From a virus, in the IMG/VR virus record IMGVR_UViG_3300017971_000207, positions 1 to 64,000 of that record: a stretch of 64,000 nucleotides of DNA; one strand, given 5' to 3'. Both the position numbers and the translations under genes were made by a program. The notes beneath the pieces are model-generated. The model was not told where the DNA came from and made no database searches. It was given only the letters and a program-made list of their open reading frames with translations. Of this stretch, positions 34,197 through 52,400 are shown one piece after another. How positions within the stretch are numbered: the first letter of the stretch is position 1; every line of letters starts with the position of its first letter.

Positions 34197-34231
34197 CTTA
34201 ACCTCCTGAACGACCGCGTGGTCGCATCCTA

Positions 34232-37200
34232 TCAGAAAACGCCGTCTGAGCCCCAGCCTGAGCCACCACGGCCCCATCCAGGCGAGCCCATACCGCCACC
34301 CAAGATCGGTGGGAGCACGTTCGGCTGCTGCCCGACCGGAAGCTGGGCCGCCGGTGGATAAAAGCGACCACTGTCGACGTGCCGGCCCGATAGACGACGC
34401 GCCGCGGCTGCGTGCTGCTGCTCCTCCATCCAGACGTCGGCCGAGGCCATCGCGCCGCGGAGCACAGGGAGCGGCTGCGTGGCCTGATGCTGCGACAGAG
34501 TGTAGATACAGCCCGCCAGGGCATCGCTCGTATCCTTAGAGCCCTTCTTGGGATGATCGACGCGCTGGCGCTTTGCGTCCAGCTCCAGCTCCCGCAGCTC
34601 TTTGAACACCGTAGGGTAACGATAGATGTTAATCCGATCCTCATAAAAAGCCGTCTTGAGCGCCTCGTACGGGTCCATCTTCGTGTCGACCGAGAGATGC
34701 TCCGCCGCATACCCCTTCTGCTTCAGCTGCTGTAACGCGTCGATCGACTGCCATGTATCCTGAGTAACCAGGGTGATAATGAAACCGTGAGCACTAAGCT
34801 CATAGACGAGGCGCCGCAGGTCGCCGAGCACAATCTCGTCCCCCACTGGAGGGACGATGCGCAGAATAACATCGACAAAGTAGATCGGCTGCCGCTCCTG
34901 GAATACCTCCCCGTCCTCCGCACGGCGCAGTACGTCCTTCCAGCCGCTGATATGAGCCATACAGAAGCCCACCGAATCCTTACGATAGGCAGGGTCGATG
35001 TGGATGTGCCGCGCCGCCTTGGGGTTGACAATCGGCGTCAGGGACTCGTGAGTGTAGCCCGAGAAGTCCCGCATCTGCGTCTTACGTACGAGGTTTTCCC
35101 AGATGAACGTCCCCGGCTTGGAGGGGTCGTATACCTCCACGCTGAAGGGATGCTGCCGCGTGTCGTCAAAGACAAGCTTCTCGCGACGCTGAACAAAGGG
35201 GCTAACTGCAACGGTCGACACCCCCGCGATATCTCTTATGCTGCCTTCAAGGTCACGCTCGAAGTCCGACTTGAAGTCGACGGGGACCGCTACCAACGTG
35301 ACGCCGTCAGGCACCCCGTCCCGCTCCAACCTGCTCTCCTCCCCCTCGTCCAGGATACGCGAGGGTATCTGCTCATTACCGCACAGCACATAGAAGCGCT
35401 CGGGGCTAAAGTGGTCCGCGGGCTTTGAATCCCACAGCGCGTAATCTCGGACCATCACCCGCGGGTCCTCCTTAGCTTCCCGAATGCGCCGCGCCGTGAA
35501 GTCATCCGCGGTCTTCTTTGACGAAACGAGGAAGATCTTCCCGAGCACACGGCCGCCCCGGCCGAAGCGGGATTTCATGCGGCGCTTGAGACCGTTGTAG
35601 ATCATCTCCGCGTGGTCCACAGCCCCCATCCGTGGGTCTATCTTGCGCCCCTTGCTAAGGAAGTTGCTGTTGTGAACGAGCACCCCGTCCCCTATGAAGA
35701 CCTCACATCCTGGGACGCAAATGTCGTAGGTAGGGAGCATTCCCAGCCCTCTCTTGGACACGACGCGGGCCACAGTAAACGCTCGTCCCATACCTCGTAT
35801 ACCCACCCCTGACGAGCGCAATACGCCCGTACCGCTCCCATCTTCGCCTTCTCCTTGGGGTTGGATATGTAGCCTCTGGGCTTCACCTCGACGACCAGCG
35901 TGCGGCCGTCGCTCAGCTCGACCACGTAATCCGGCACAGTGTTGCGTCGCTTGTCCTCCCAAAGGTACGGCACCGACAGCTTCTCGTAACGGTAAGCGGC
36001 TACATCCGAACGCCCCTCCAATATCTCCACCGCTCGAAGCTCCCACAGCGAACGAAAGCCCAGCAAACCCGCCTTCGTCGTCTCGACACGGCCTAGATAC
36101 CTCCAATCTCCCTTCTTCAGGCGCCAGACGCTTGACGCCGATATCTTGGCCCGTGTCTCCTCCGAATGCGTGTAGTCCCGAGTGCGGTTGTATTCGATCA
36201 AACGCCGCTTGAACGCTTCCGTATGCATAGGTTTGCCCCGCCGCGCCTCTGACATTTTGCGTCGCGCCTCCGCCGAGGGGCGCCTCCCAGTCGCAGCCTC
36301 TCGCAACCGCTGCTTGTGCTCCTCTGACAGAGGCTTGCCGTAGTTGGGGTTGTCCTCCCCCACCATTGGCGGCGGTGGTCGCAAGTTGCTGTCTCCAGCG
36401 GCCCAACGCTCCTTCATCGCCCGCGACACTTTGGAACGCGCCTCGTCCGACATCACCTTCCCTCGGTTTCCCTCTCCTATCTTGCGCTTGGTCTCCTCCG
36501 TGTGCTTCCAACCAGTCCTCTTCCTCCGCGCCTCCGCCATCTTGCGCTTTGCTTCCGCCGTATGCTTGCGCCCATGAAACGGGTTCTTTGAGCCCGTCCG
36601 CTGCTTGGCTATCTCCGATAAGCGTCTCTTTTGATCCTCCGAAAGCTTCTGACCTTTCCTCGGCATATGTGACAACCTCCTCACCCGGAAGTATATCACG
36701 CATTAACTTGAAGCCTAGAACCCCGTCACGGCCTAGCACAGCCACCGGATGCCTCCACGACGCGCGCAGACGTTGCCCCCCGTCAAGCTCTACCTCAAAG
36801 CACTCCTGGACCGTCGAACGCTTGATATACGCATCAGCCTCCACTGGGCAGCCCCCCTCTACCGACAGCAACCTAAAGGGCAACCGCAGCGGCCCACAAG
36901 ACTCATAAAGAGCCTCCGCAGTGGCCACCCGACCCCCTGGAAGCGACACCAAGGTATCAGCGCACACGCACTCATCCACTAAGGCCCCGAGGGTGTTCAA
37001 ACCCAATGCGGAGGTGTCCGTGGTGGCCCGAGCTGCCAGCCACACGTTGTTGGGGAACCTGAACTCCTTCCGCGTAGCCTTGTACGGGAAGTGCTCCGCA
37101 AAGTAAGGGCTAGCTTTGAGCTTCGTCGCAATGTTCTCAAAGGCGACCTTCATCGCCAGGCCCTCATTGACGCTCAAGCACACGATCGAGATGTCGGTGT

Positions 37201-37642
37201 CCGGCGCCAGCCCAAGAGAGGCGTGAGGGTCGCGGAGGCAGGATAGCTCGTAGAGCATACGGCAGACTGCTACGGACGCTGAAAAGGTCTTTCCCCCTCC
37301 GATCGCCCCCGTAAAGATGACCTCTTCGTAGTCGCCCCCCTCAAAGAGCTCCTCCATGTCCGAGAGCCATCTGGGATACAGCACGCTGCAGGTGTTGCCG
37401 AGGTAGTAGTCATCCTTGACGAAGGTCGCGATATCCACGGGAGGATGCTTGAACTCGGCCTCGCTCACGATATCGATTAGGGGGCGGTCGCCCTCGCTAC
37501 GCTCCTCCTCGACCTCCGTCAACAGCACCATCAAGGCTGCGCGCTCATCCGGGCTTAGCGCTGCTAGCTCCTGCCGTAGGTCGGCCTCGTCCTCCTCAGC
37601 CGTACGCTTGCTGAAGATCCGACCACCGCGGTTTACGAGCAC
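34232..37642 (-). CDS. terL: Terminase large subunit with one intein; about 702 aa spliced
   Basis: Walker A GAIGGGKT; Walker B LVDE|S; nuclease HIHID...DHPKKGSKDTSDA. Confidence 0.93.
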   Translation of the reverse strand: MLVNRGGRIFSKRTAEEDEADLRQELAALSPDERAALMVLLTEVEEERSEGDRPLIDIVSEAEFKHPPVDIATFVKDDYYLGNTCSVLYPRWLSDMEELFEGGDYEEVIFTGAIGGGKTFSASVAVCRMLYELSCLRDPHASLGLAPDTDISIVCLSVNEGLAMKVAFENIATKLKASPYFAEHFPYKATRKEFRFPNNVWLAARATTDTSALGLNTLGALVDECVCADTLVSLPGGRVATAEALYESCGPLRLPFRLLSVEGGCPVEADAYIKRSTVQECFEVELDGGQRLRASWRHPVAVLGRDGVLGFKLMRDILPGEEVVTYAEERSEAFGGSKETLIGDSQAADGLKEPVSWAQAYGGSKAQDGGGAEEEDWLEAHGGDQAQDRRGKPREGDVGRGAFQSVAGDEGALGRWRQQLATTAANGGGGQPQLRQASVRGAQAAVARGCDWEAPLGGGATQNVRGAAGQTYAYGSVQAAFDRIQPHSGLHAFGGDTGQDIGVKRLAPEEGRLEVSRPCRDDEGGFAGLSFAVGASSGGDIGGAFGCSRLPLREAVGAVPLGGQATQHCAGLRGRAERRPHAGRRGEAQRLHIQPQGEGEDGSGTGVLRSSGVGIRGMGRAFTVARVVSKRGLGMLPTYDICVPGCEVFIGDGVLVHNSNFLSKGRKIDPRMGAVDHAEMIYNGLKRRMKSRFGRGGRVLGKIFLVSSKKTADDFTARRIREAKEDPRVMVRDYALWDSKPADHFSPERFYVLCGNEQIPSRILDEGEESRLERDGVPDGVTLVAVPVDFKSDFERDLEGSIRDIAGVSTVAVSPFVQRREKLVFDDTRQHPFSVEVYDPSKPGTFIWENLVRKTQMRDFSGYTHESLTPIVNPKAARHIHIDPAYRKDSVGFCMAHISGWKDVLRRAEDGEVFQERQPIYFVDVILRIVPPVGDEIVLGDLRRLVYELSAHGFIITLVTQDTWQSIDALQQLKQKGYAAEHLSVDTKMDPYEALKTAFYEDRINIYRYPTVFKELRELELDAKRQRVDHPKKGSKDTSDALAGCIYTLSQHQATQPLPVLRGAMASADVWMEEQQHAAAARRLSGRHVDSGRFYPPAAQLPVGQQPNVLPPILGGGMGSPGWGRGGSGWGSDGVF
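35669..36970 (-). mobile_element. TerL intein (434 aa) without in-frame endonuclease
   Basis: VDE|CVCADTLV...SWRHPV...TYDICVPGCEVFIGDGVLVHN|S; the middle reads as low-information G/A/R text. Confidence 0.92.
35692..36666 (-). CDS. Nested +1-frame endonuclease: NUMOD3 repeats plus TnsA-like PD-(D/E)XK domain
   Basis: GAGGAGG SD 9 nt before the ATG; repeated H(T/S)EETKRKI(S/G) NUMOD3 motifs; FRSLWE...YRYE...PDYVV...VEVKP. Confidence 0.9.
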   Translation of the reverse strand: MPRKGQKLSEDQKRRLSEIAKQRTGSKNPFHGRKHTAEAKRKMAEARRKRTGWKHTEETKRKIGEGNRGKVMSDEARSKVSRAMKERWAAGDSNLRPPPPMVGEDNPNYGKPLSEEHKQRLREAATGRRPSAEARRKMSEARRGKPMHTEAFKRRLIEYNRTRDYTHSEETRAKISASSVWRLKKGDWRYLGRVETTKAGLLGFRSLWELRAVEILEGRSDVAAYRYEKLSVPYLWEDKRRNTVPDYVVELSDGRTLVVEVKPRGYISNPKEKAKMGAVRAYCARQGWVYEVWDERLLWPASCPREGWECSLPTTFASQDVRSS

Positions 37643-43076: not shown

Positions 43077-46000
43077 TCAATGAGCTGCCCATGACCTGCC
43101 AGTATCTCCCTCAGCGACGCACGGAACTGATCGCATCATCGGCTGAATGCCCTCAATCATCGCCTGCTCCACCTCCAGCTTCACCTGCGCCACGAGCTCC
43201 TCGTCATCGTCACACTCGACCACGATCTCGTCGTGCACCATGTGAACCATCTTGGCCCGAGAGCCGAAGCGCTTCAGGCGGAAGTACACGTTGCGTAGGG
43301 AGCGCTTGAGGCCGTCGGCCCCCGAGCCTTGGATCGGGGTGTTCCCTGTTATGAACACATGCCCACTACGCCGAGCCACGAAGAAGGTATTAGGAACAAT
43401 TGGGCACCATATCCCGAAAACACCCTTGAGCTGCCTCACATGCTTCTTAAGCACCTGCGCCTTGTCGCGGTTGAGCACAGTAACCTGCCAGTGCTCCGTC
43501 CCCTTGGGAACATTCTTAAGCTTGGGCGACCTCGGCCTGTACTTCCGCATATCGCGCTTCTTGATGGAGCCCACGTAACCGCAAAGCGTGCAGAGAATCT
43601 GGAAAACTTCTGCTCCCTCTCGGGAACGGCTGACAAAGGCCGTCTTATCGCTACGCCACCCATCCCCACCGATCATGGTTTGGAGCAGTAGACGACACTG
43701 CCGAGCCGTAAGCAGATTAAGAAGGTCCATGGTCAAAACACGGCCGGGGCAGAGCTGCACCAAAACCTCATTCAGAGGGTGCCGAAAGTACCACATACGC
43801 CCCCCCGCTTCCCCATTCTCGCTCTTCGAGTACCTCATCCCCAATCTACCCAGAAGCGCCTCAATACAAGCCACCTTATAAGGGTTAGCCCGCACACTCT
43901 GATAGAGCTTCAAGGACACCCCACTAGGCTTAGGACCACGCTTTCCGGGACGGTCGTAGACCCTACGGGTCTTCTGAATACCGCCGTCCGTCAACCACCA
44001 ACCAGCAAGCTCCACAAAGTCGTCCGACAGGAGGCTACTCTCGGGCCCTTCGTACCGACCGGTGCGATGGATGCGATCGTCACCATGACGCGAGAGTGTT
44101 GATGTCCGTCGCTCCATGTCCTTTCGGGCGCCCTTGTTGTAGACAAGCCAACGATGGTCCGCTGTGGACACCGCATGAAACGACTTTGACTTGAACTCCG
44201 TAAGCTCCCTCTCCACAGGCTCAAACACCCTTAAGTCCGTAGGAGCCTGCCACTCTAAGGCACCTGTTTTTGGGTTCTTGGTCAGAATCTCGTCGCCCAG
44301 AGCAAGATCCGGCCCTCTGACCCACCCCCGGCGTGTGAGCGCCTCCGTTTCAAAGTCTAGGCAGTTGAAGTACTCATTGCGCGCCGTCTCGGGGTCGAGG
44401 TAGCGCCGACGGCCCCACAGGGTGCGGGCATAGGGGACACGCTTCGCATCACGCAGAGAGCGCTCCTGCCACGCGCGCACGCGCGGGTAGCCGTCAAAGT
44501 AACGCTTGATGAACTTGTTGGCCTGCGCCTCTGTGATCGTCACCCCGTAGTTAGCCTGGGAGTACACGACCAGCTTCGCAGCTCCTAGCCCGTAGATGAG
44601 CCCGAAGTTGACCGGCTTCGCCGCCTGGCGCTGCGCCTTGGTCACCTCATCGTAGGGAACTCCCGCGACGATGCTAGCCGTCCGACGGTGCGCATCCTCC
44701 CCCCGAAGGTAGATACCAATAAGCACAGGGTCCTGCGTCACCTCCGCAGCAAGACGGAGCTCTATCTGTGAGTTATGACTAACAAAGCCGTCGCTGATAT
44801 AGGTCACGGGACCAGGGACCGACAGGTCATAGACATCCTCCTCACCATCAAGCTCTATCGAGTCCACCGCATCGAAGAACGTCCCGTCCTCCACCGTCCG
44901 GCTCAACCCCAGCTCCCGATAAACCTCCGGGTGCTCCTCGCGCAGCTTCACAGCCACCAGAAAGCTGACAGACCGCCCCAGAGACGCCGTGTTGTTGAGC
45001 AATCTCCGTACCTCCCCCTCCAGCCTCAGCTCCCTAACACGCTCCTGCATATTAGGCACAGAGCCCACCGTCGGAGATACGGGACCACGCCCTATCAAGC
45101 CCGACAGCTTCCCCTGCTTGCGCCACGAGAAGAACCCCACAGTCTCCACAAACCTAGAGAGGAACAACCGGGGGACACGCAGCGACCAGCCCACATAACG
45201 ACGCCCCTCCCCATGCCGCTCCTTGCGCCGAGTAGACAACACCCCCAGAGCCAGGAGCAGCTGTTGGACCTCAACAATAAGACGCCTGCGGGAGGAGACC
45301 AGCTTCACGTGGTCCCCCCCAGCACTACCGTCCGCCTCAAAGAGGCCCCGCAAAAAGGCGCCCACCACACGCGGCGGAGAGGACCAAAGAAACCCAGGCA
45401 CAGCCCCCTTTGAAACGCCTAAAGCTACAAACCAGTCGCGAAGCTGCTTGCGATTGACGTGCGTCTCAATGACGCCACGATACTCCTTGACATGTAGATC
45501 ACGAAGCCCGAACAGCTCCTCACACAGCCCCAGCAGACGCTCATGGACCGCCGGGTCCTTAGCGTTTACCACCCACCGAAGATAGTTGGACCCTAGATTC
45601 CCGTCCCCCACAAAGTAACCAACAAAGAAAGCCAAGTCCTCAGAGACCTCCCCAGGAACACGAACCTCCTTGCTGTTGACGCCACCAGAAGGCTTAGGCG
45701 GCAGCACAACCTTCGACGAAGCCTCCGACAAACCCCGGCCGGATTGCACAGCCACGTAGTCCGACGGCCCTATCTCATGTAGACGCTTCCAAACATAGGC
45801 TCCCTCACGGTCAAGGACTCTAATACGGTGAAGAGACGTAGCACGCAGCTCGTAGCCAAGCTTCGTCCGAATCCGATAGACAGACTGGACCCCTTTAGAG
45901 ATACGGTCGCTCACTCGATGCTTCGTCCCGTCCTCCACCAAGACCTCAGCACCTACGGCAACATTCTCCACCGGCACCAAACCCTCCGATGTCGCCACGC

Positions 46001-47951
46001 GCGTCCCCCCCACGACGCAATAGTCGGTAACGATTAGTATTCGGCCATCGCCCGGTCTGAAGCAATCACGGTACTCAAAAGCGCGAGGAATCTGCTGCAG
46101 GTTTGGCGATCGGCTATTATGAGAGAAGACCCCACAAGCCTCATAGCTCTCATCTACGGCGACGGTAATGTCATAGACCTCACGACTTCCGCAAGCGTAG
46201 ACTTCCTCAATTGTAACGTCTTGCTGTCCTTCAGCTGCCTGTAGTGAATAGCCTTGTGGCCTGAGTGAGTCACCAGCGCGAGGTTGTGCAGATCGTTGTT
46301 CTTCGGATCCCCGTCTATGTGATGGACCGTCAAGTGCTCGGGAATCTCCCCCAAGCCCAACGCTTCGGCCATCACCACGCGATGAACGAATCGCCTCTTG
46401 CCATTGTGCAGGCAAGTCAGATACCCATAGCCGTCGTCGCACAACCCCTTCCAGTTGTGGTGTTGCTCCCCCTTCTTGCCCCACATAGGATTCTGCTCCC
46501 CCGTCTTTGATGCCGAGTAACGCAGAGCTGCTAACGCCTTGCGCTCGGCCTCCGGCATACACGATCGTACCACATGCGACACGTTGTGAAACGTAGTCCC
46601 CAGCCTCTCGGCAACCTCTGTAAGCTTCAACATCTCCGGGCTCCGGTACAGTTCCAGAACATCCCGACGATTCTTCGCGTCCCCTGTCCAAGTCTTTGAT
46701 ACACTCATCTACCATACTCCGAACAGACTTCCACTCACCAGTAGAGAGTAGCAATCTGTGGGAGCCCGTGCACTTCAAAACCTCCCCGTTACTAAAACGT
46801 ACCGAATATATCCTCTCGGGTTTAAGCCTCCAATGGTTGATGACGGGCTGCCAACGCTCCTTGTGGGTCCATACCTGGTCACCGACAGAGACATCCTCCA
46901 TCCGCTTCATACCCTCAGTGGTCCGGATAAGTGTCTCCCCCACTACGCAGCTGTATCGGCCAGCTCCAGTTAGCGGCCAGAAGTCCGTATGGATACGACC
47001 CGTCTTCGGATTGATGTTCTCCAGGTAGTCAGGACCGAAGGAGTCGACACGCTTCGATATCTTGCGGTACTCGATGAAGAGCGGGAAGACCTTATGCTTT
47101 GTCGCGATCATCGCAATGAGGTCTGACGCCGTGCTCGTCAGACCAAGATTAAGCGGCTTACCGTTCGGCTTGGTCAGCGAGTTAAAGCTCGCGAGCACCT
47201 GCTGCGGCGAGCGGTAGTTGAAGCCCGAGGGAATGCCCGGCAGGCTCAGCAGCCCCTTCGGATGCGGCAGCATCACATCCAGCTTATTGCGCAGCTCCTC
47301 TAGCTTACGCTTGTTGGCCTCCGCTACCTTGAGCCACATCTCGCTATCCAACCGAAAGCCGTTCAGCTCTATCTCCGCCTCGGCGAGAGGGGCCCCGAAC
47401 TCGATCAAGGCTATACGGTTGAGCCCTGCCTTGGCCAGCTTCGGCTTGAGCGCGTCCCGCAGCTCTAGGAGGTACGTCACATCCTCCGCCGCATAGTCTA
47501 GCTGCTCTTCCCCAAGCTCGGCCGCCGACCAGTCCGACCCTCCCATGTCCCCTGTCCCTGGCTCTACCTTGAGCTCTCGGGCATACAGGTCATAAAGGTT
47601 GTTCCCCAAAAAGCGGCCATTGTGGATAATCGCAGAGGCCCGAAAGGTATCGAACACAGGCCACAATTCAATACCGTGGTGAAAGAGTAGCCACTTCTGC
47701 TCAAACTTCGCGTTCTGGATCACCTTAATGGCGGAGCCCTTCAGCGCCTCCACCAACGGCCCCATAGTGCACGTCTTGAACAGGTCAATGACGTAGATAC
47801 CCTGCCCTGTGTTGAGCTGCAGCAGCCGTATCTTCCCGTCGCGCGGGTCCAAGGAGGTGGTCTCAATGTCGAGACCCACCACCTTGGCGTTGTCGACCTC
47901 GTTGGCTATGGCCCCTAACCGCTCCGCAGAGGTGACGTATTCATAGCTCAT
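43077..47951 (-). CDS. polA: Family A DNA polymerase (3'-5' exo plus pol) with three inteins; about 589 aa spliced
   Basis: ExoI DIET, NAKFE and YAAED; GRYS|SRSPNLQQIP; motif A DY|SQIELR; motif B RQAAKPVNFGLIYG; motif C VHDE. Confidence 0.96.
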   Translation of the reverse strand: MSYEYVTSAERLGAIANEVDNAKVVGLDIETTSLDPRDGKIRLLQLNTGQGIYVIDLFKTCTMGPLVEALKGSAIKVIQNAKFEQKWLLFHHGIELWPVFDTFRASAIIHNGRFLGNNLYDLYARELKVEPGTGDMGGSDWSAAELGEEQLDYAAEDVTYLLELRDALKPKLAKAGLNRIALIEFGAPLAEAEIELNGFRLDSEMWLKVAEANKRKLEELRNKLDVMLPHPKGLLSLPGIPSGFNYRSPQQVLASFNSLTKPNGKPLNLGLTSTASDLIAMIATKHKVFPLFIEYRKISKRVDSFGPDYLENINPKTGRIHTDFWPLTGAGRYSCVVGETLIRTTEGMKRMEDVSVGDQVWTHKERWQPVINHWRLKPERIYSVRFSNGEVLKCTGSHRLLLSTGEWKSVRSMVDECIKDLDRGREESSGCSGTVPEPGDVEAYRGCREAGDYVSQRVACGTIVYAGGRAQGVSSSALLGIKDGGAESYVGQEGGATPQLEGVVRRRLWVSDLPAQWQEAIRSSRGDGRSVGLGGDSRALDGPSHRRGSEEQRSAQPRAGDSLRPQGYSLQAAEGQQDVTIEEVYACGSREVYDITVAVDESYEACGVFSHNSRSPNLQQIPRAFEYRDCFRPGDGRILIVTDYCVVGGTRVATSEGLVPVENVAVGAEVLVEDGTKHRVSDRISKGVQSVYRIRTKLGYELRATSLHRIRVLDREGAYVWKRLHEIGPSDYVAVQSGRGLSEASSKVVLPPKPSGGVNSKEVRVPGEVSEDLAFFVGYFVGDGNLGSNYLRWVVNAKDPAVHERLLGLCEELFGLRDLHVKEYRGVIETHVNRKQLRDWFVALGVSKGAVPGFLWSSPPRVVGAFLRGLFEADGSAGGDHVKLVSSRRRLIVEVQQLLLALGVLSTRRKERHGEGRRYVGWSLRVPRLFLSRFVETVGFFSWRKQGKLSGLIGRGPVSPTVGSVPNMQERVRELRLEGEVRRLLNNTASLGRSVSFLVAVKLREEHPEVYRELGLSRTVEDGTFFDAVDSIELDGEEDVYDLSVPGPVTYISDGFVSHNSQIELRLAAEVTQDPVLIGIYLRGEDAHRRTASIVAGVPYDEVTKAQRQAAKPVNFGLIYGLGAAKLVVYSQANYGVTITEAQANKFIKRYFDGYPRVRAWQERSLRDAKRVPYARTLWGRRRYLDPETARNEYFNCLDFETEALTRRGWVRGPDLALGDEILTKNPKTGALEWQAPTDLRVFEPVERELTEFKSKSFHAVSTADHRWLVYNKGARKDMERRTSTLSRHGDDRIHRTGRYEGPESSLLSDDFVELAGWWLTDGGIQKTRRVYDRPGKRGPKPSGVSLKLYQSVRANPYKVACIEALLGRLGMRYSKSENGEAGGRMWYFRHPLNEVLVQLCPGRVLTMDLLNLLTARQCRLLLQTMIGGDGWRSDKTAFVSRSREGAEVFQILCTLCGYVGSIKKRDMRKYRPRSPKLKNVPKGTEHWQVTVLNRDKAQVLKKHVRQLKGVFGIWCPIVPNTFFVARRSGHVFITGNTPIQGSGADGLKRSLRNVYFRLKRFGSRAKMVHMVHDEIVVECDDDEELVAQVKLEVEQAMIEGIQPMMRSVPCVAEGDTGRSWAAH
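43341..44363 (-). mobile_element. Polymerase intein 3 (341 aa, in-frame LAGLIDADG-like, ends GN|T)
   Basis: YFN|CLDFETEALT...TADHRW...AGWWLTDG...FITGN|TPIQG. Confidence 0.93.
44772..46019 (-). mobile_element. Polymerase intein 2 (416 aa, in-frame LAGLIDADG) in motif A
   Basis: TDY|CVVGGTRV...GYFVGDG...FLRGLFEADG...FVSHN|S. Confidence 0.95.
46116..46949 (-). mobile_element. Polymerase intein 1 (278 aa) without in-frame endonuclease
   Basis: RYS|CVVGETLI...CTGSHRL...VYDITVAVDESYEACGVFSHN|S. Confidence 0.93.
46154..46708 (-). CDS. Nested +1-frame HTH-HNH endonuclease inside polymerase intein 1
   Basis: GGAG SD 8 nt before the ATG; NPMWGK, HHNWKG, FVHRVVMAE and VHHIDGDPKNNDLHNLALVTHSGHKAIH. 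Confidence 0.92.
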   Translation of the reverse strand: MSVSKTWTGDAKNRRDVLELYRSPEMLKLTEVAERLGTTFHNVSHVVRSCMPEAERKALAALRYSASKTGEQNPMWGKKGEQHHNWKGLCDDGYGYLTCLHNGKRRFVHRVVMAEALGLGEIPEHLTVHHIDGDPKNNDLHNLALVTHSGHKAIHYRQLKDSKTLQLRKSTLAEVVRSMTLPSP

Positions 47952-49415: not shown

Positions 49416-52400
49416 CTACTCCATCAGAAGGGGCTCGACATACTTCCTGTACATCTCCCCAAGGTTGCGCTCCTCAACCACAAAGTCCTCAATCGGTACC
49501 CCGTTGCAAACATTGATGCCCGCTGCGCGGCACTTCTCAATAATGACCTGCCTGTACGTCTTCCCGTGGTAGGGGTCGGATATGTCAGTGACCGTACCAG
49601 AGCAGGTTATCCGGAGAATGCTCCGAACCGGGATACCGTAGCGGACCGCAGACTCCGTGGTCTTGTTCTGCGCCGACGTCTCAAGGTCGTTTATCGCGCC
49701 CTCGATGTTCAAACGCTCCCGCCAATACATACCATCCTTCGGACCCGACCGTTGCGGCGCCGTTATCCCAAAGTCGTCGCCGATCAGAAAGTAATAATCT
49801 AAGCGGCCGATCTCCCGCGGGTGGATGAGCGCCTGAGCACCTCCTCTCGATGCCCAAGGCATACCCGCGCCGGACCCCGCATTAGACGAAAGCTTCTTCT
49901 TCGTGACGATGTAGTTGAGCGCCTGGTCCGCTCCCCCCGTCTTCGTATCATCGTTCTCAGACGTCGCCCCAACGCGCCCAATACCCTGCGTAGCCCGCTG
50001 ATTCGCGCTGATAATCCCAGCAGTCAGAATCGAGTGCACAAACTCGTAGTTGATGCCCTGCACGGCAAAGCGATAGCCCTGCTCATATAGGCGCTTATAG
50101 CGTCCCTTGTCGACGAAGCAGGTGTAGCCGGGAAACACCTCCTCCTCGACAACCTCGTTCAAGTTAACATCCACGCCCGATGCCGCAATGAACTCCTTGA
50201 TCTTCGCAGGCGTCTTCAGCTCCTTCGGCATCGTCGCCCCGTAATAGCTGTCCGACAGCGCATCTGCCGTCTGAGGTGCGACAGACCAGAGCACCTGCAT
50301 CAGCTTGCGATACTCCTTCTCCTCTGGCGTAGCATTGCGCAGCAGCTCCCCAGACAGACCAGGCTTTACCGCCTCCAGAAGACGCTTCAGCGCCTCGTGA
50401 GGCGTCTCGCCCGCCTTCGGGCGCACGCGTGCCCACACACCACCCTGCCACGCATAGCAACCCTGCTTCATCCAGTAGCCTGGGACCTTAAGCTTGTCGC
50501 CGACCTCTAGGTCCCCTGTGGGCCTGTTGTTCCGTAGGCGTAGCGCCTGCTCCGTCGTGTTGTGCTGGCGCGCAACATACTGCCAAGCAGTAAGCGACAC
50601 CTTGGGGGCGCCCCAGACACCCGCGTTGATAATGTCGGTACCCTCCCGCCCAAAGTCCGACGCCTTAACCTTGTGGTTCTTCTCTTTGATCCGGTCTGCC
50701 TTCGCGATATGAAGCTCCGAGCCCTGGTCCGACCAGTACACAGTAGTGATTGGTTGGCTATGATGCTGTCCAGTCGCCACAAAGGCATCCAAGCTGTCGT
50801 CAAAGTTGTTCGGAGGCGTTGGGGCGGCTGACAGGCGGAAGCTGCCGTCCGTGCCGCCATGCCCCGTAAGCAGCTCTCCCCACACGTTAGGCCGCAGCTT
50901 GAGAGCAAACTCGTAGTAGAGCCCCTGAGTATCTTTCCACTTCCTAACGGTAAGATTGTTGCCCTCGACCGCTGCACCATCCGACTCGAAGCGCACACCA
51001 GAACGCCCGAGGTTCATCTTGTGCACCTCCGCGAGGTCTGCCGCGTTAGCCCTGGCGGGCGGATGGGCAATATCGTCCGGGAAGTACAAAGGTACCGGCG
51101 GGGTCGGACCTACCGGAGACGTCACATTGAACGGCTCGACCGGAACATCCATCTTCACGGAGGCTCCCTCAAAGGCCGCCTTGTCGATTAGAACGTGCGT
51201 GTAGTAGCTGCCCGTTACAAGGCCGTGCGCCGTATCGTACGAGATACCCAGCTCCGTACAGATATCCTTGAGCCGCTGCTTCGGGTCCGGCGCATCATTA
51301 GTGATGCACAGCAGCAGCTTCGACGGCTCGGTGTTGTGCTGCTTGGTCTTGACAGTAACGCCGAGATCACTCCCTTGCTTGGTCAGATACTCGGAGGATG
51401 AGAAGGTCTTCTCAATAACAGAGGGGCCCTCGACGGGCTCGTCAGGCACCTGCCAGCCGCCTGCAAAGGTGAATTGCCCTGTGTCCTTCTTCCCCGTCCG
51501 CTCGCGGTACATGAGCGTGATGAAGGTCTCAAAGTCCCTCCGCAGATCAAGCTTTCGGCGGCGCGCCCGCTGGAGGAACTTGCGCTGCTCCGCCGGCTTG
51601 CCGGGCCAATACGACTCCGCATAGGGGCGCAGCATCTTGATAAACTTCGCCGTGGGGATGGCCTGCAGCTTCATAACGGTTTTCTCGATCCTACTTAGAT
51701 CGAGATCGAAGTCATTATTCCGCCACCCTACCCACAGCTTGTTGTAGACACTCCCAACGTTGTTGGGGTCGTACTTCCCAGTTAGCTCATCCTTACCCAG
51801 GAACAGGTAGCATTGCTCCTTATCGACACCCTGCACCGTGCCGTCCGCCAGACGGATAAACTGCCCCCCATGATTGTCGTTCTGCGACATCAGCCAATCG
51901 ACCACCTGCTCCTGAACGAGGTAAGAGCGGTCTGCCGCCGATAGCTCCGTAGCCGGGTGCTTGTATTGCTGCTCCAAGGTGGGGTTGGTGCTGTCCAGCT
52001 CTACTAGCGGCTGCAGCGTGCCCACGTGGCCGCGAAGCTTGATCACCCCGACGGGGATAGCATCTGGGTTGACCGTCTTGGCCACCTCGTAGAATATCTG
52101 CTGAGCTGCTGCCGCGAAGGGTTTGATCTCCTTGTTCCAACCCTTTGTGATGGCCGGCTTGAACATCCACCGCTTACCGGTCTTCTTATCGGTGTAGATG
52201 TATTTCTCGCCCGCGCCGCCGAGGATGCTCTTGGCGCTCTTCCCCTCGTCTAGGTCCTTCTTCTTAGGCAGCTGCGGCAGCTTCGGCATCGCCAGGACGA
52301 CCTCCTCAGCTGACAGGGAGACCGGCGGCAATGCCGTGGAAGGCCCAGGCTCAGGGAGAACCTCGGGCAGCGGGTAGGTAGCTGTGGGTCCTGGAGGCGG

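Follow-up and report, generated by a model that had tools for sequence, protein, structure and literature searches.

Several systems have been described in which a nuclease gene lies inside an intein, or inside a comparable insertion, without sharing its reading frame. In actinophages, Gosselin, Arsenault & Gogarten (bioRxiv 10.1101/2025.01.02.630785) reported inteins with nucleases outside the intein frame: an endonuclease VII-like gene in frame 3, and LAGLIDADG and Vsr-like genes on the antisense strand, HNH nucleases being found in frame only. A LAGLIDADG gene in the +2 frame of a cyanobacterial dnaX intein was described by Phillips et al. (bioRxiv 10.64898/2026.09.14.751524), who credit Gorbalenya (1998), a work also cited in the actinophage study, with the first hint of an out-of-frame intein nuclease. 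Other arrangements include the ShiLan domain, an HNH insertion lying out of frame in the DNA methylase of a mycobacteriophage (Arsenault et al., 2025, PMC11855218), and the group I introns of phage PolA genes, whose nickase I-PfoP3I makes its nick in the coding strand 4 nucleotides (nt) upstream of the intron site, a site also used by the introns of SPO1, SP82 and Bastille (PMC3428280). This work concerns intein 1 of a family A DNA polymerase (PolA) encoded in the first 64 kb (64,000 nt, hereafter the window) of the 145-kb IMG/VR virus contig IMGVR_UViG_3300017971_000207. The loop of this intein, read in the +1 frame, is a separate HNH endonuclease gene, and we consider it about 85% probable that the intein is a dual-coding mobile element.

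The actinophage inteins resemble this locus in that a nuclease open reading frame (ORF) lies between the splicing blocks and out of the intein frame, in that the intein-frame stretch has no recognisable fold, and in that invasion of the intein by a free-standing nuclease gene was proposed as the origin. They differ in the host genes, the 19 listed including DNA polymerase III alpha but not family A PolA, and in the nuclease, here a +1-frame HNH_3 gene of the I-HmuI/I-PfoP3I type, with a Shine-Dalgarno (SD) motif, in non-actinophage metagenomic phages; furthermore, stop avoidance is quantified here, and the ratio of nonsynonymous to synonymous substitution rates (dN/dS) is given for each frame. 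The dnaX intein also has an overlapping nuclease ORF, with a dN/dS that is low in the frame of the nuclease and inflated in that of the host; mini-intein alleles coexist with it, and a secondary invasion was proposed. However, its host gene is cellular, its nuclease is a LAGLIDADG in another phase, and no donor lineage was identified, whereas here the sister group consists of intron-borne and free-standing PolA HNHs. The PolA group I intron nickases (I-PfoP3I and that of PhAPEC7) are homologous HNH_3 proteins that target the same PolA motif, but they reside without overlap in the non-coding context of a self-splicing RNA intron, while the present gene is overprinted on a protein-splicing loop. 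ShiLan likewise conceals an HNH gene in a different frame of an insertion devoid of host-frame stops, but has no splicing domain and no detectable ribosome-binding site, and its insert stays in the protein; here intein blocks and an SD motif are present. The architecture and the evolutionary idea are already published, and the PolA HNH family is a new and large member. In the literature outside subscription journals, no prior report was found of a PolA intein with an HNH_3 gene in +1, nor of the size and age of this family, its SD-type start, or its sister relation to nickases of introns at the same site.

The host gene (43077..47951, minus strand) encodes a polymerase precursor of 1624 amino acids (aa) that contains, besides its 3'-5' exonuclease and polymerase domains, three inteins, as judged from the ORF list, the translation and Pfam (DNA_pol_A_exo1, DNA_pol_A, Hint_2, Intein_splicing and LAGLIDADG_3). 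It is a single uninterrupted ORF, as had been claimed in the original prediction, an earlier reading of this DNA from its letters. The GC content is ~0.53-0.64 along the gene and 53-58% over intein 1. Intein 1 (46116..46949, minus strand) is a class 1 intein of 278 aa inserted at TGAGRYS|SRSPNLQQIP, where the bar marks the insertion point; boundaries, alignment and fold matches place its limits, from Cys1 (CVVGETL) to GVFSHN followed by Ser, at exactly the coordinates first proposed. The N-terminal features of class 1 are present (the C1 nucleophile, and T61-x-x-H64 of block B in CTGSH), blocks F and G end in VYDITVAVDESYEACGVFSHN, and the +1 residue is Ser. In an alignment of 17 inteins, C1, H64, D260, H277 and N278 do not vary, and every locus has S or C as its +1 residue. 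With its motifs intact in an essential polymerase, the intein is presumed to be active in protein splicing.

[quoted passage not shown] The C-terminal splicing region, with blocks F and G (aa 243-278; 46116..46223, minus strand), is delimited by pLDDT and by conservation in the HNH and intein alignments; its first ~23 codons are truly dual-coding with the C-terminal tail of the HNH. Between both regions lies a stop-free polymerase-frame loop of ~155 aa (aa 88-241; 46227..46688, minus strand), rich in R, G and S, which is predicted to be disordered and, judging from pLDDT, dN/dS and identity, is free of amino-acid constraint. The C-extein SRSPNLQQIP (46086..46115, minus strand) forms, with GRYS (46950..46961), the presumed homing site, as indicated by the exon ends of PolA introns and by empty sites in relatives.

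The nested gene (46154..46708, minus strand) encodes a helix-turn-helix (HTH)-HNH_3 endonuclease of 184 aa, an assignment based on Pfam, PHROG, invariant residues, dN/dS and AlphaFold; it opens at intein codon 81 and ends with a TAG at codon 265. The protein scores 46.9 bits against PF13392 (HNH_3), whose curated cut-off is 24.8, and matches phrog_7545 'HNH endonuclease' at 4e-21, and H109, H129, H130, N138, N142, H151 and H155 are invariant in 34 HNH sequences. What had been noticed about its layout agrees in every respect with the sequence: the ORF is in the +1 frame (47951-46708 = 1243 = 1 mod 3); it begins right after the N-terminal splicing region, aa 1-80 serving splicing and the HNH starting at codon 81; its ATG (46708..46706) is preceded by GGAG at 46720..46717 (feature 46717..46720, minus strand, seen in the sequence itself), a Shine-Dalgarno-like motif that sits inside polymerase-frame codons at a spacing of 8 nt; and its TAG lies inside block F, where the polymerase frame translates GTC GCC GTA GAT GAG as V A V D E. 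The HNH's own frame is closed by a TAG immediately 5' of the ATG.

One sign that both frames are real is the lack of stops. Given the HNH protein and the local codon usage, 10.0-12.6 stops would be expected in the polymerase frame over the HNH gene and none is observed (P ~1e-5 to 2e-7), while the third frame has 12 over the HNH region. HNH codons ending in T before a codon that starts with AA, AG or GA amount to 0/41, against 32/103 elsewhere. Ordinary genes of the window contain 0.047 stops per codon at the +2 offset, the one at which the polymerase frame lies relative to the HNH, and 0.038 at the +1 offset, and in each of 24 loci of the family the host frame contains no stop, versus 3.4-18.7 expected. 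These figures bear directly on the possibility of an artefact, namely that the HNH is truly in frame with the intein and was shifted by two compensating indels, which could be suspected of a single metagenomic virus contig. Such indels would have left about 10 (~10-13) polymerase-frame stops and none is present, so that this explanation fails on sequence alone. In addition, the HNH has its own ATG, SD motif and stop, with its own frame closed directly before the ATG, and the same phase recurs in 47 other independently assembled contigs, from many samples, with near-saturated synonymous sites. The claim that the arrangement is no sequencing artefact is fully upheld, and the probability left to an artefact is negligible.

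The extent of the family was surveyed in viral and metagenome contigs, which were searched with the HNH and, independently, with the polymerase-frame intein (an alignment of eight sequences); contigs encoding the closest HNH homologues were also examined and gave two usable loci. More than 100 HNH protein homologues were found, with 42-74% identity and nearly all of 180-183 aa; at the nucleotide level, a blastn search of the region against GenBank phages gave no match. A near-full-length HNH match is present in 56 loci, in 48 of which (including the window and eight repeat fetches) the gene is nested in a contiguous PolA-type ORF, the other eight being free-standing. The host frame is HNH+2 in 48/48 nested loci and no other phase occurs. 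Once duplicates and two partial copies are set aside, the nested HNHs amount to 38 distinct sequences. The inteins are 259-300 aa long (276-280 in most), with the HNH beginning near intein codon 81. The host PolA genes are very diverse, and at least two of them, read by eye, appear to have a uracil-DNA-glycosylase-like N-terminal region. Nevertheless, the insertion site is near-uniform, TGR(L/Y/F)S|C ... HN|(S/C)xxPNLQ, which we take to correspond to the Escherichia coli Pol I motif TGRLS|STDPNLQNIP.

Selection distinguishes the two frames clearly. The variability of host codon positions 1, 2 and 3 is 0.50/0.41/0.64 and 0.53/0.46/0.64 in the flanks, one flank being 150 aa made up of ~70 extein aa plus the N-terminal splicing region. 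Within the overlap, the pattern shifts to the HNH phase, with 0.39/0.31/0.58 at HNH positions 1, 2 and 3, and the polymerase third position is the least variable one there. In eight of nine pairs, with 64-77% nucleotide identity (the ninth pair, 99% identical, is uninformative), the Nei-Gojobori method (NG86) gave dN/dS of 0.10-0.34 in the HNH frame, where computable, and of 1.3-2.0 when that DNA is read in the polymerase frame. Compared with the window copy, the HNHs are 50-73% identical and the polymerase-frame loops 27-48%. Purifying selection in the +1 frame, the absence of which would have spoken against the original prediction, is therefore present, and in the overlap it acts on the +1 frame only. 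These values are difficult to reconcile with a relic, that is, a fixed mini-intein with a long loop whose HNH nuclease is no longer made or used. Expression of the HNH is a prediction, and some loci without an SD motif and decayed forms (locus L197, and locus L203, which has host-frame stops) are compatible with a relic; on the other hand, a relic would quickly gain stops and indels, because nothing else constrains the +1 frame, yet the ORF is intact in 38/38 distinct nested copies, the catalytic residues are invariant in the 34 sequences, and the low HNH-frame dN/dS holds across diverged pairs. A relic is for this reason considered unlikely.

Predicted structures give a matching picture. The AlphaFold model of the polymerase frame, built with a 17-sequence alignment, has pLDDT 89-96 over aa 1-80, 76-92 over aa 243-278 and below 50 over aa 88-241. 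In Foldseek, both ends of the intein align to the mini-inteins gp41-1 (template modelling score, TM, 0.85), Npu DnaE (0.81), Ssp DnaB and Mtu RecA, with E of 1e-6 to 1e-4 and TM by target of 0.7-0.86 for these matches. The HNH-frame model has a mean pLDDT of 84.7 and combines a beta-beta-alpha core with a helical, HTH-like N-terminal part; its best PDB match is I-HmuI (1u3e), a weak one (E 0.06, probability 0.95, 81 columns), and the HNH alignment profile gave no match to PDB sequences at E <= 0.01. In these models, the loop of the intein frame has no fold and the alternate frame folds as a nuclease, the pattern by which dual coding is recognised. The models describe a mini-intein in which the loop is a by-product of reading the gene for a folded nuclease out of frame.

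Internal initiation appears to be the best-supported mode of translation of the HNH, judging from the start regions. In all loci the HNH starts with ATG or GTG and the N-terminus MS(V/I)SK is conserved. A purine-rich motif of the GGAG/GAGG type, embedded in Glu and Gly codons of the polymerase frame, is found 8-13 nt upstream of the start in ~14 of 19 homologous loci; in the window, SD-like motifs precede 17/30 gene starts versus a background of 26%. Production of the HNH by programmed +1 ribosomal frameshifting, as a fusion, would be favored by the passage of PolA-translating ribosomes across the region and by the usual inefficiency of internal initiation within a translated ORF. Nonetheless, a stop 3-66 nt 5' of the start closes the HNH frame in each of the loci checked, which, together with the ATG or GTG, the conserved N-terminus and the SD-like motif of most loci, makes frameshifting very unlikely; no conserved slippery site was noticed, although no formal search for one was made.

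The closest HNHs outside inteins include the ORFs of group I introns in phage PolA genes, those of Pf-WMP3 (I-PfoP3I) and PhAPEC7. The Pf-WMP3 HNH_3 homologue has 34% identity to the nested HNH (E 2e-12). In both phages, exon 1 ends in RLSSSKP and exon 2 opens with NIQQIP, four codons downstream of the intein site. This proximity, and the precedent of nuclease genes lying between split-intein halves (Dassa et al., 2009, PMC2677866), raise the question of whether what is read here as a contiguous intein might instead be a group I intron, or a 'fractured gene' with a split intein. Fractured genes are indeed similar in that a free-standing nuclease gene lies between the N- and C-terminal intein halves, but their host is split into two ORFs whose products are trans-spliced, whereas here there is one contiguous open ORF. 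In none of the 48 nested loci is the polymerase frame interrupted, the intein has both Hint halves, which are predicted to fold together, and the locus examined with Rfam here (L001) gave no match at E <= 0.1, while the Pf-WMP3 control was recognised as RF00028 at E 6.6e-5. A misread intron or split intein is thus regarded as extremely improbable.

Homology to I-PfoP3I and the shared PolA site suggest that the HNH would cleave or nick the empty PolA allele. In a maximum likelihood (ML) tree, a branch with 98% support in the Shimodaira-Hasegawa-like approximate likelihood ratio test (SH-aLRT) divides the nested HNHs from a set of seven that stand free or are encoded in introns, two of which are annotated as intron-encoded in PolA. 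One free-standing HNH, in locus L100 (2242..3549), falls inside the nested clade as sister to those of L195 and L201. It lies ~190 nt past a 5' part of PolA that ends in TVTGRSSSR*, and no intein blocks, Rfam intron match or recognisable 3' part of PolA were found within that locus; the HNH may have escaped secondarily, or the contig may be broken or chimeric. The original prediction had proposed that free-standing nuclease genes colonise mini-inteins and make them mobile again; the evidence (the 98% branch, the correlated divergence described below, the empty sites and L197) is consistent with this route, its direction being presumed. A more specific proposal, that the nested clade descends from HNH nickase genes directed at the PolA motif, either intron-borne or free, and passed from an RNA-splicing to a protein-splicing carrier 12 nt away, is advanced tentatively, as possible but doubtful.

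As regards mobility, the pairwise identities of the HNH and of the splicing domain are correlated (Spearman 0.74), while each is correlated with the extein only at 0.26-0.31; the mean pairwise identities are 0.45 for the HNH, 0.44 for the splicing domain and 0.28 for the flanking extein. By this comparison of sequences, the HNH and the splicing domain appear to move as a unit, largely uncoupled from the extein. The site is empty in 17/17 nearest relatives of the window PolA N-extein (42-67% identity), for example TGAGRYASRAPNLQQIPR, and the empty PolA alleles of L224, L225 and L239 read GAGRYASRAPNLQQIP. Decayed forms have also been found. L197 (2501..2995) holds at the same PolA site a mini-intein of 165 aa with a +1 HNH remnant, in which the HNH N-terminus (FSKTWTSNPKN) is fused to the C-terminal third (NALDNLAVVT..GHKTVH) and the nuclease core is deleted in frame; its sequence points to decay of the nuclease without loss of the intein. 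L203 (2501..3046) contains an intein of the PolA HNH family with two host-frame stops in a short loop and no HNH; the allele is either degenerate or split. From their sequences, the empty, occupied and decayed forms look like the stages expected of a homing cycle.

Taken as a dual-coding mobile element, intein 1 would work as follows. The 80 N-terminal and ~36 C-terminal residues would form a complete class 1 Hint splicing domain, whose halves are joined by the disordered loop of ~155 aa, the sole requirement on which would be to have no stop codon. The loop DNA, read +1, would be a separate HTH-HNH_3 homing endonuclease gene, most likely translated from the polymerase mRNA by internal initiation at its own SD motif and ATG. 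During co-infection, the nuclease would cut or nick intein-less PolA near the sequence coding for TGRxS|SxxPNLQ, repair would copy intein and nuclease together, and protein splicing would restore the polymerase. The ancestors of the nuclease clade would probably have been HNH genes, free-standing or carried by introns, for which the PolA site was an existing target.

Several points weigh against this interpretation. The translation mode, splicing, cleavage specificity, homing and evolutionary direction are inferred for every member of the family, and a clear SD motif is absent from ~5/19 loci. The per-locus P values for stop avoidance are not independent, since the loci share ancestry. The escape of the first insertion from ~10 host-frame stops is left without explanation; the insertion might have occurred in a high-GC genome, where few stops are expected (3.4 in the lowest locus), or might have gone through a split-intein stage. 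The higher identity of intein and HNH compared with the extein could partly reflect differences in rate and not transfer. The HNH tree comes from a quick ML search with midpoint rooting only, and any evolutionary direction read from it is presumptive. Finally, the 14 bp recognised by I-PfoP3I lie downstream of the cut; if this holds for the nested HNH, the intein would leave the recognition site undisrupted, and the self-immunity of the occupied allele would be unexplained.

Other nested ORFs were observed in the same genome and family. In the window, an ORF of 335 aa (35692..36699, minus strand) lies +1 inside a putative terminase ORF of 1136 aa (34232..37642, minus strand) and contains NUMOD3 repeats (1e-21) and the N domain of a TnsA-like PD-(D/E)XK endonuclease (6e-9). 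Its arrangement matches that of the PolA HNH, and it is the first of the two cases in the original prediction. PolA intein 2 (within 43077..46115, minus strand) has a LAGLIDADG_3 domain in frame, at precursor aa 862-939, and PolA intein 3 (precursor ~aa 1240-1545) has no nuclease match in Pfam. The original prediction had contrasted five inteins with in-frame LAGLIDADG nucleases with two whose other nucleases are +1; in addition to the PolA HNH, this distinction could be verified in part, for PolA intein 2 and for the NUMOD3/TnsA-like ORF. About 16.6 kb past the window, the same genome encodes an intein-bearing AAA ATPase (G000:C1 ~80061..82109; L242 562..2610, minus strand), whose nested +1 ORF of 290 aa (L242 1158..2030) has a weak DUF559/Vsr-like match, below the cut-off (E 0.0036), and makes this intein a third candidate for dual coding. 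In L007 (4252..5481), a PolA ORF that bears the HNH intein has a further intein with a +1 ORF of 409 aa in its loop; this ORF has no significant Pfam match and may represent yet another family of nucleases arranged in this way. L223 (2501..3355) has a different intein, with the C-extein SNCRC and a Cys-rich HNH (IHHINGDPTDDRIENL) in the +1 frame that is related to the PolA HNH family only distantly (E 1e-8). Two more +1 ORFs of the window, of 163 and 170 aa (50507..50998 and 34198..34710, both minus strand), were dropped as nested genes for having no Pfam match, and may be due to chance.

Five apparently independent nested nuclease ORFs (PolA HNH, terminase TnsA-like, AAA-ATPase Vsr-like, L223 HNH and the second one of L007) are all +1. 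Chance openness does not explain this phase, because the +2 offset of ordinary genes has more stops. In the +1 phase, the T of the host stops falls on the third codon position of the nuclease, so these stops are removable by synonymous T>C changes, which may explain the shared phase. That +1 should be the only possible phase was rejected in view of the published frame 3/+2 and antisense nucleases.

The findings have consequences for annotation. In the public assemblies of L174 and L175, automatic calls give the HNH and then a separate DNA_pol_A fragment, with no contiguous polymerase gene, and such inteins are consequently not annotated as inteins there. Where the HNH is called and the contiguous polymerase is not, polymerases are mis-annotated as fragments and inteins are mistaken for nuclease-less ones. 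The models further suggest that the Hint domain should tolerate ~155 essentially unconstrained residues, which would be useful for intein engineering. If the descent from PolA-motif nickases is true, the family would represent a phylogenetically traceable switch of one homing-endonuclease lineage between intron and intein, and would give a molecular basis to the 'intron-intein coincidence'. For the old question of how inteins gained their homing nucleases ('splicing first, nuclease invades later'), the PolA HNH family offers an unusually clean test system: dozens of diverged members, a nuclease predicted to be separately translated, a sister group on the same motif, natural empty sites and a decayed derivative.

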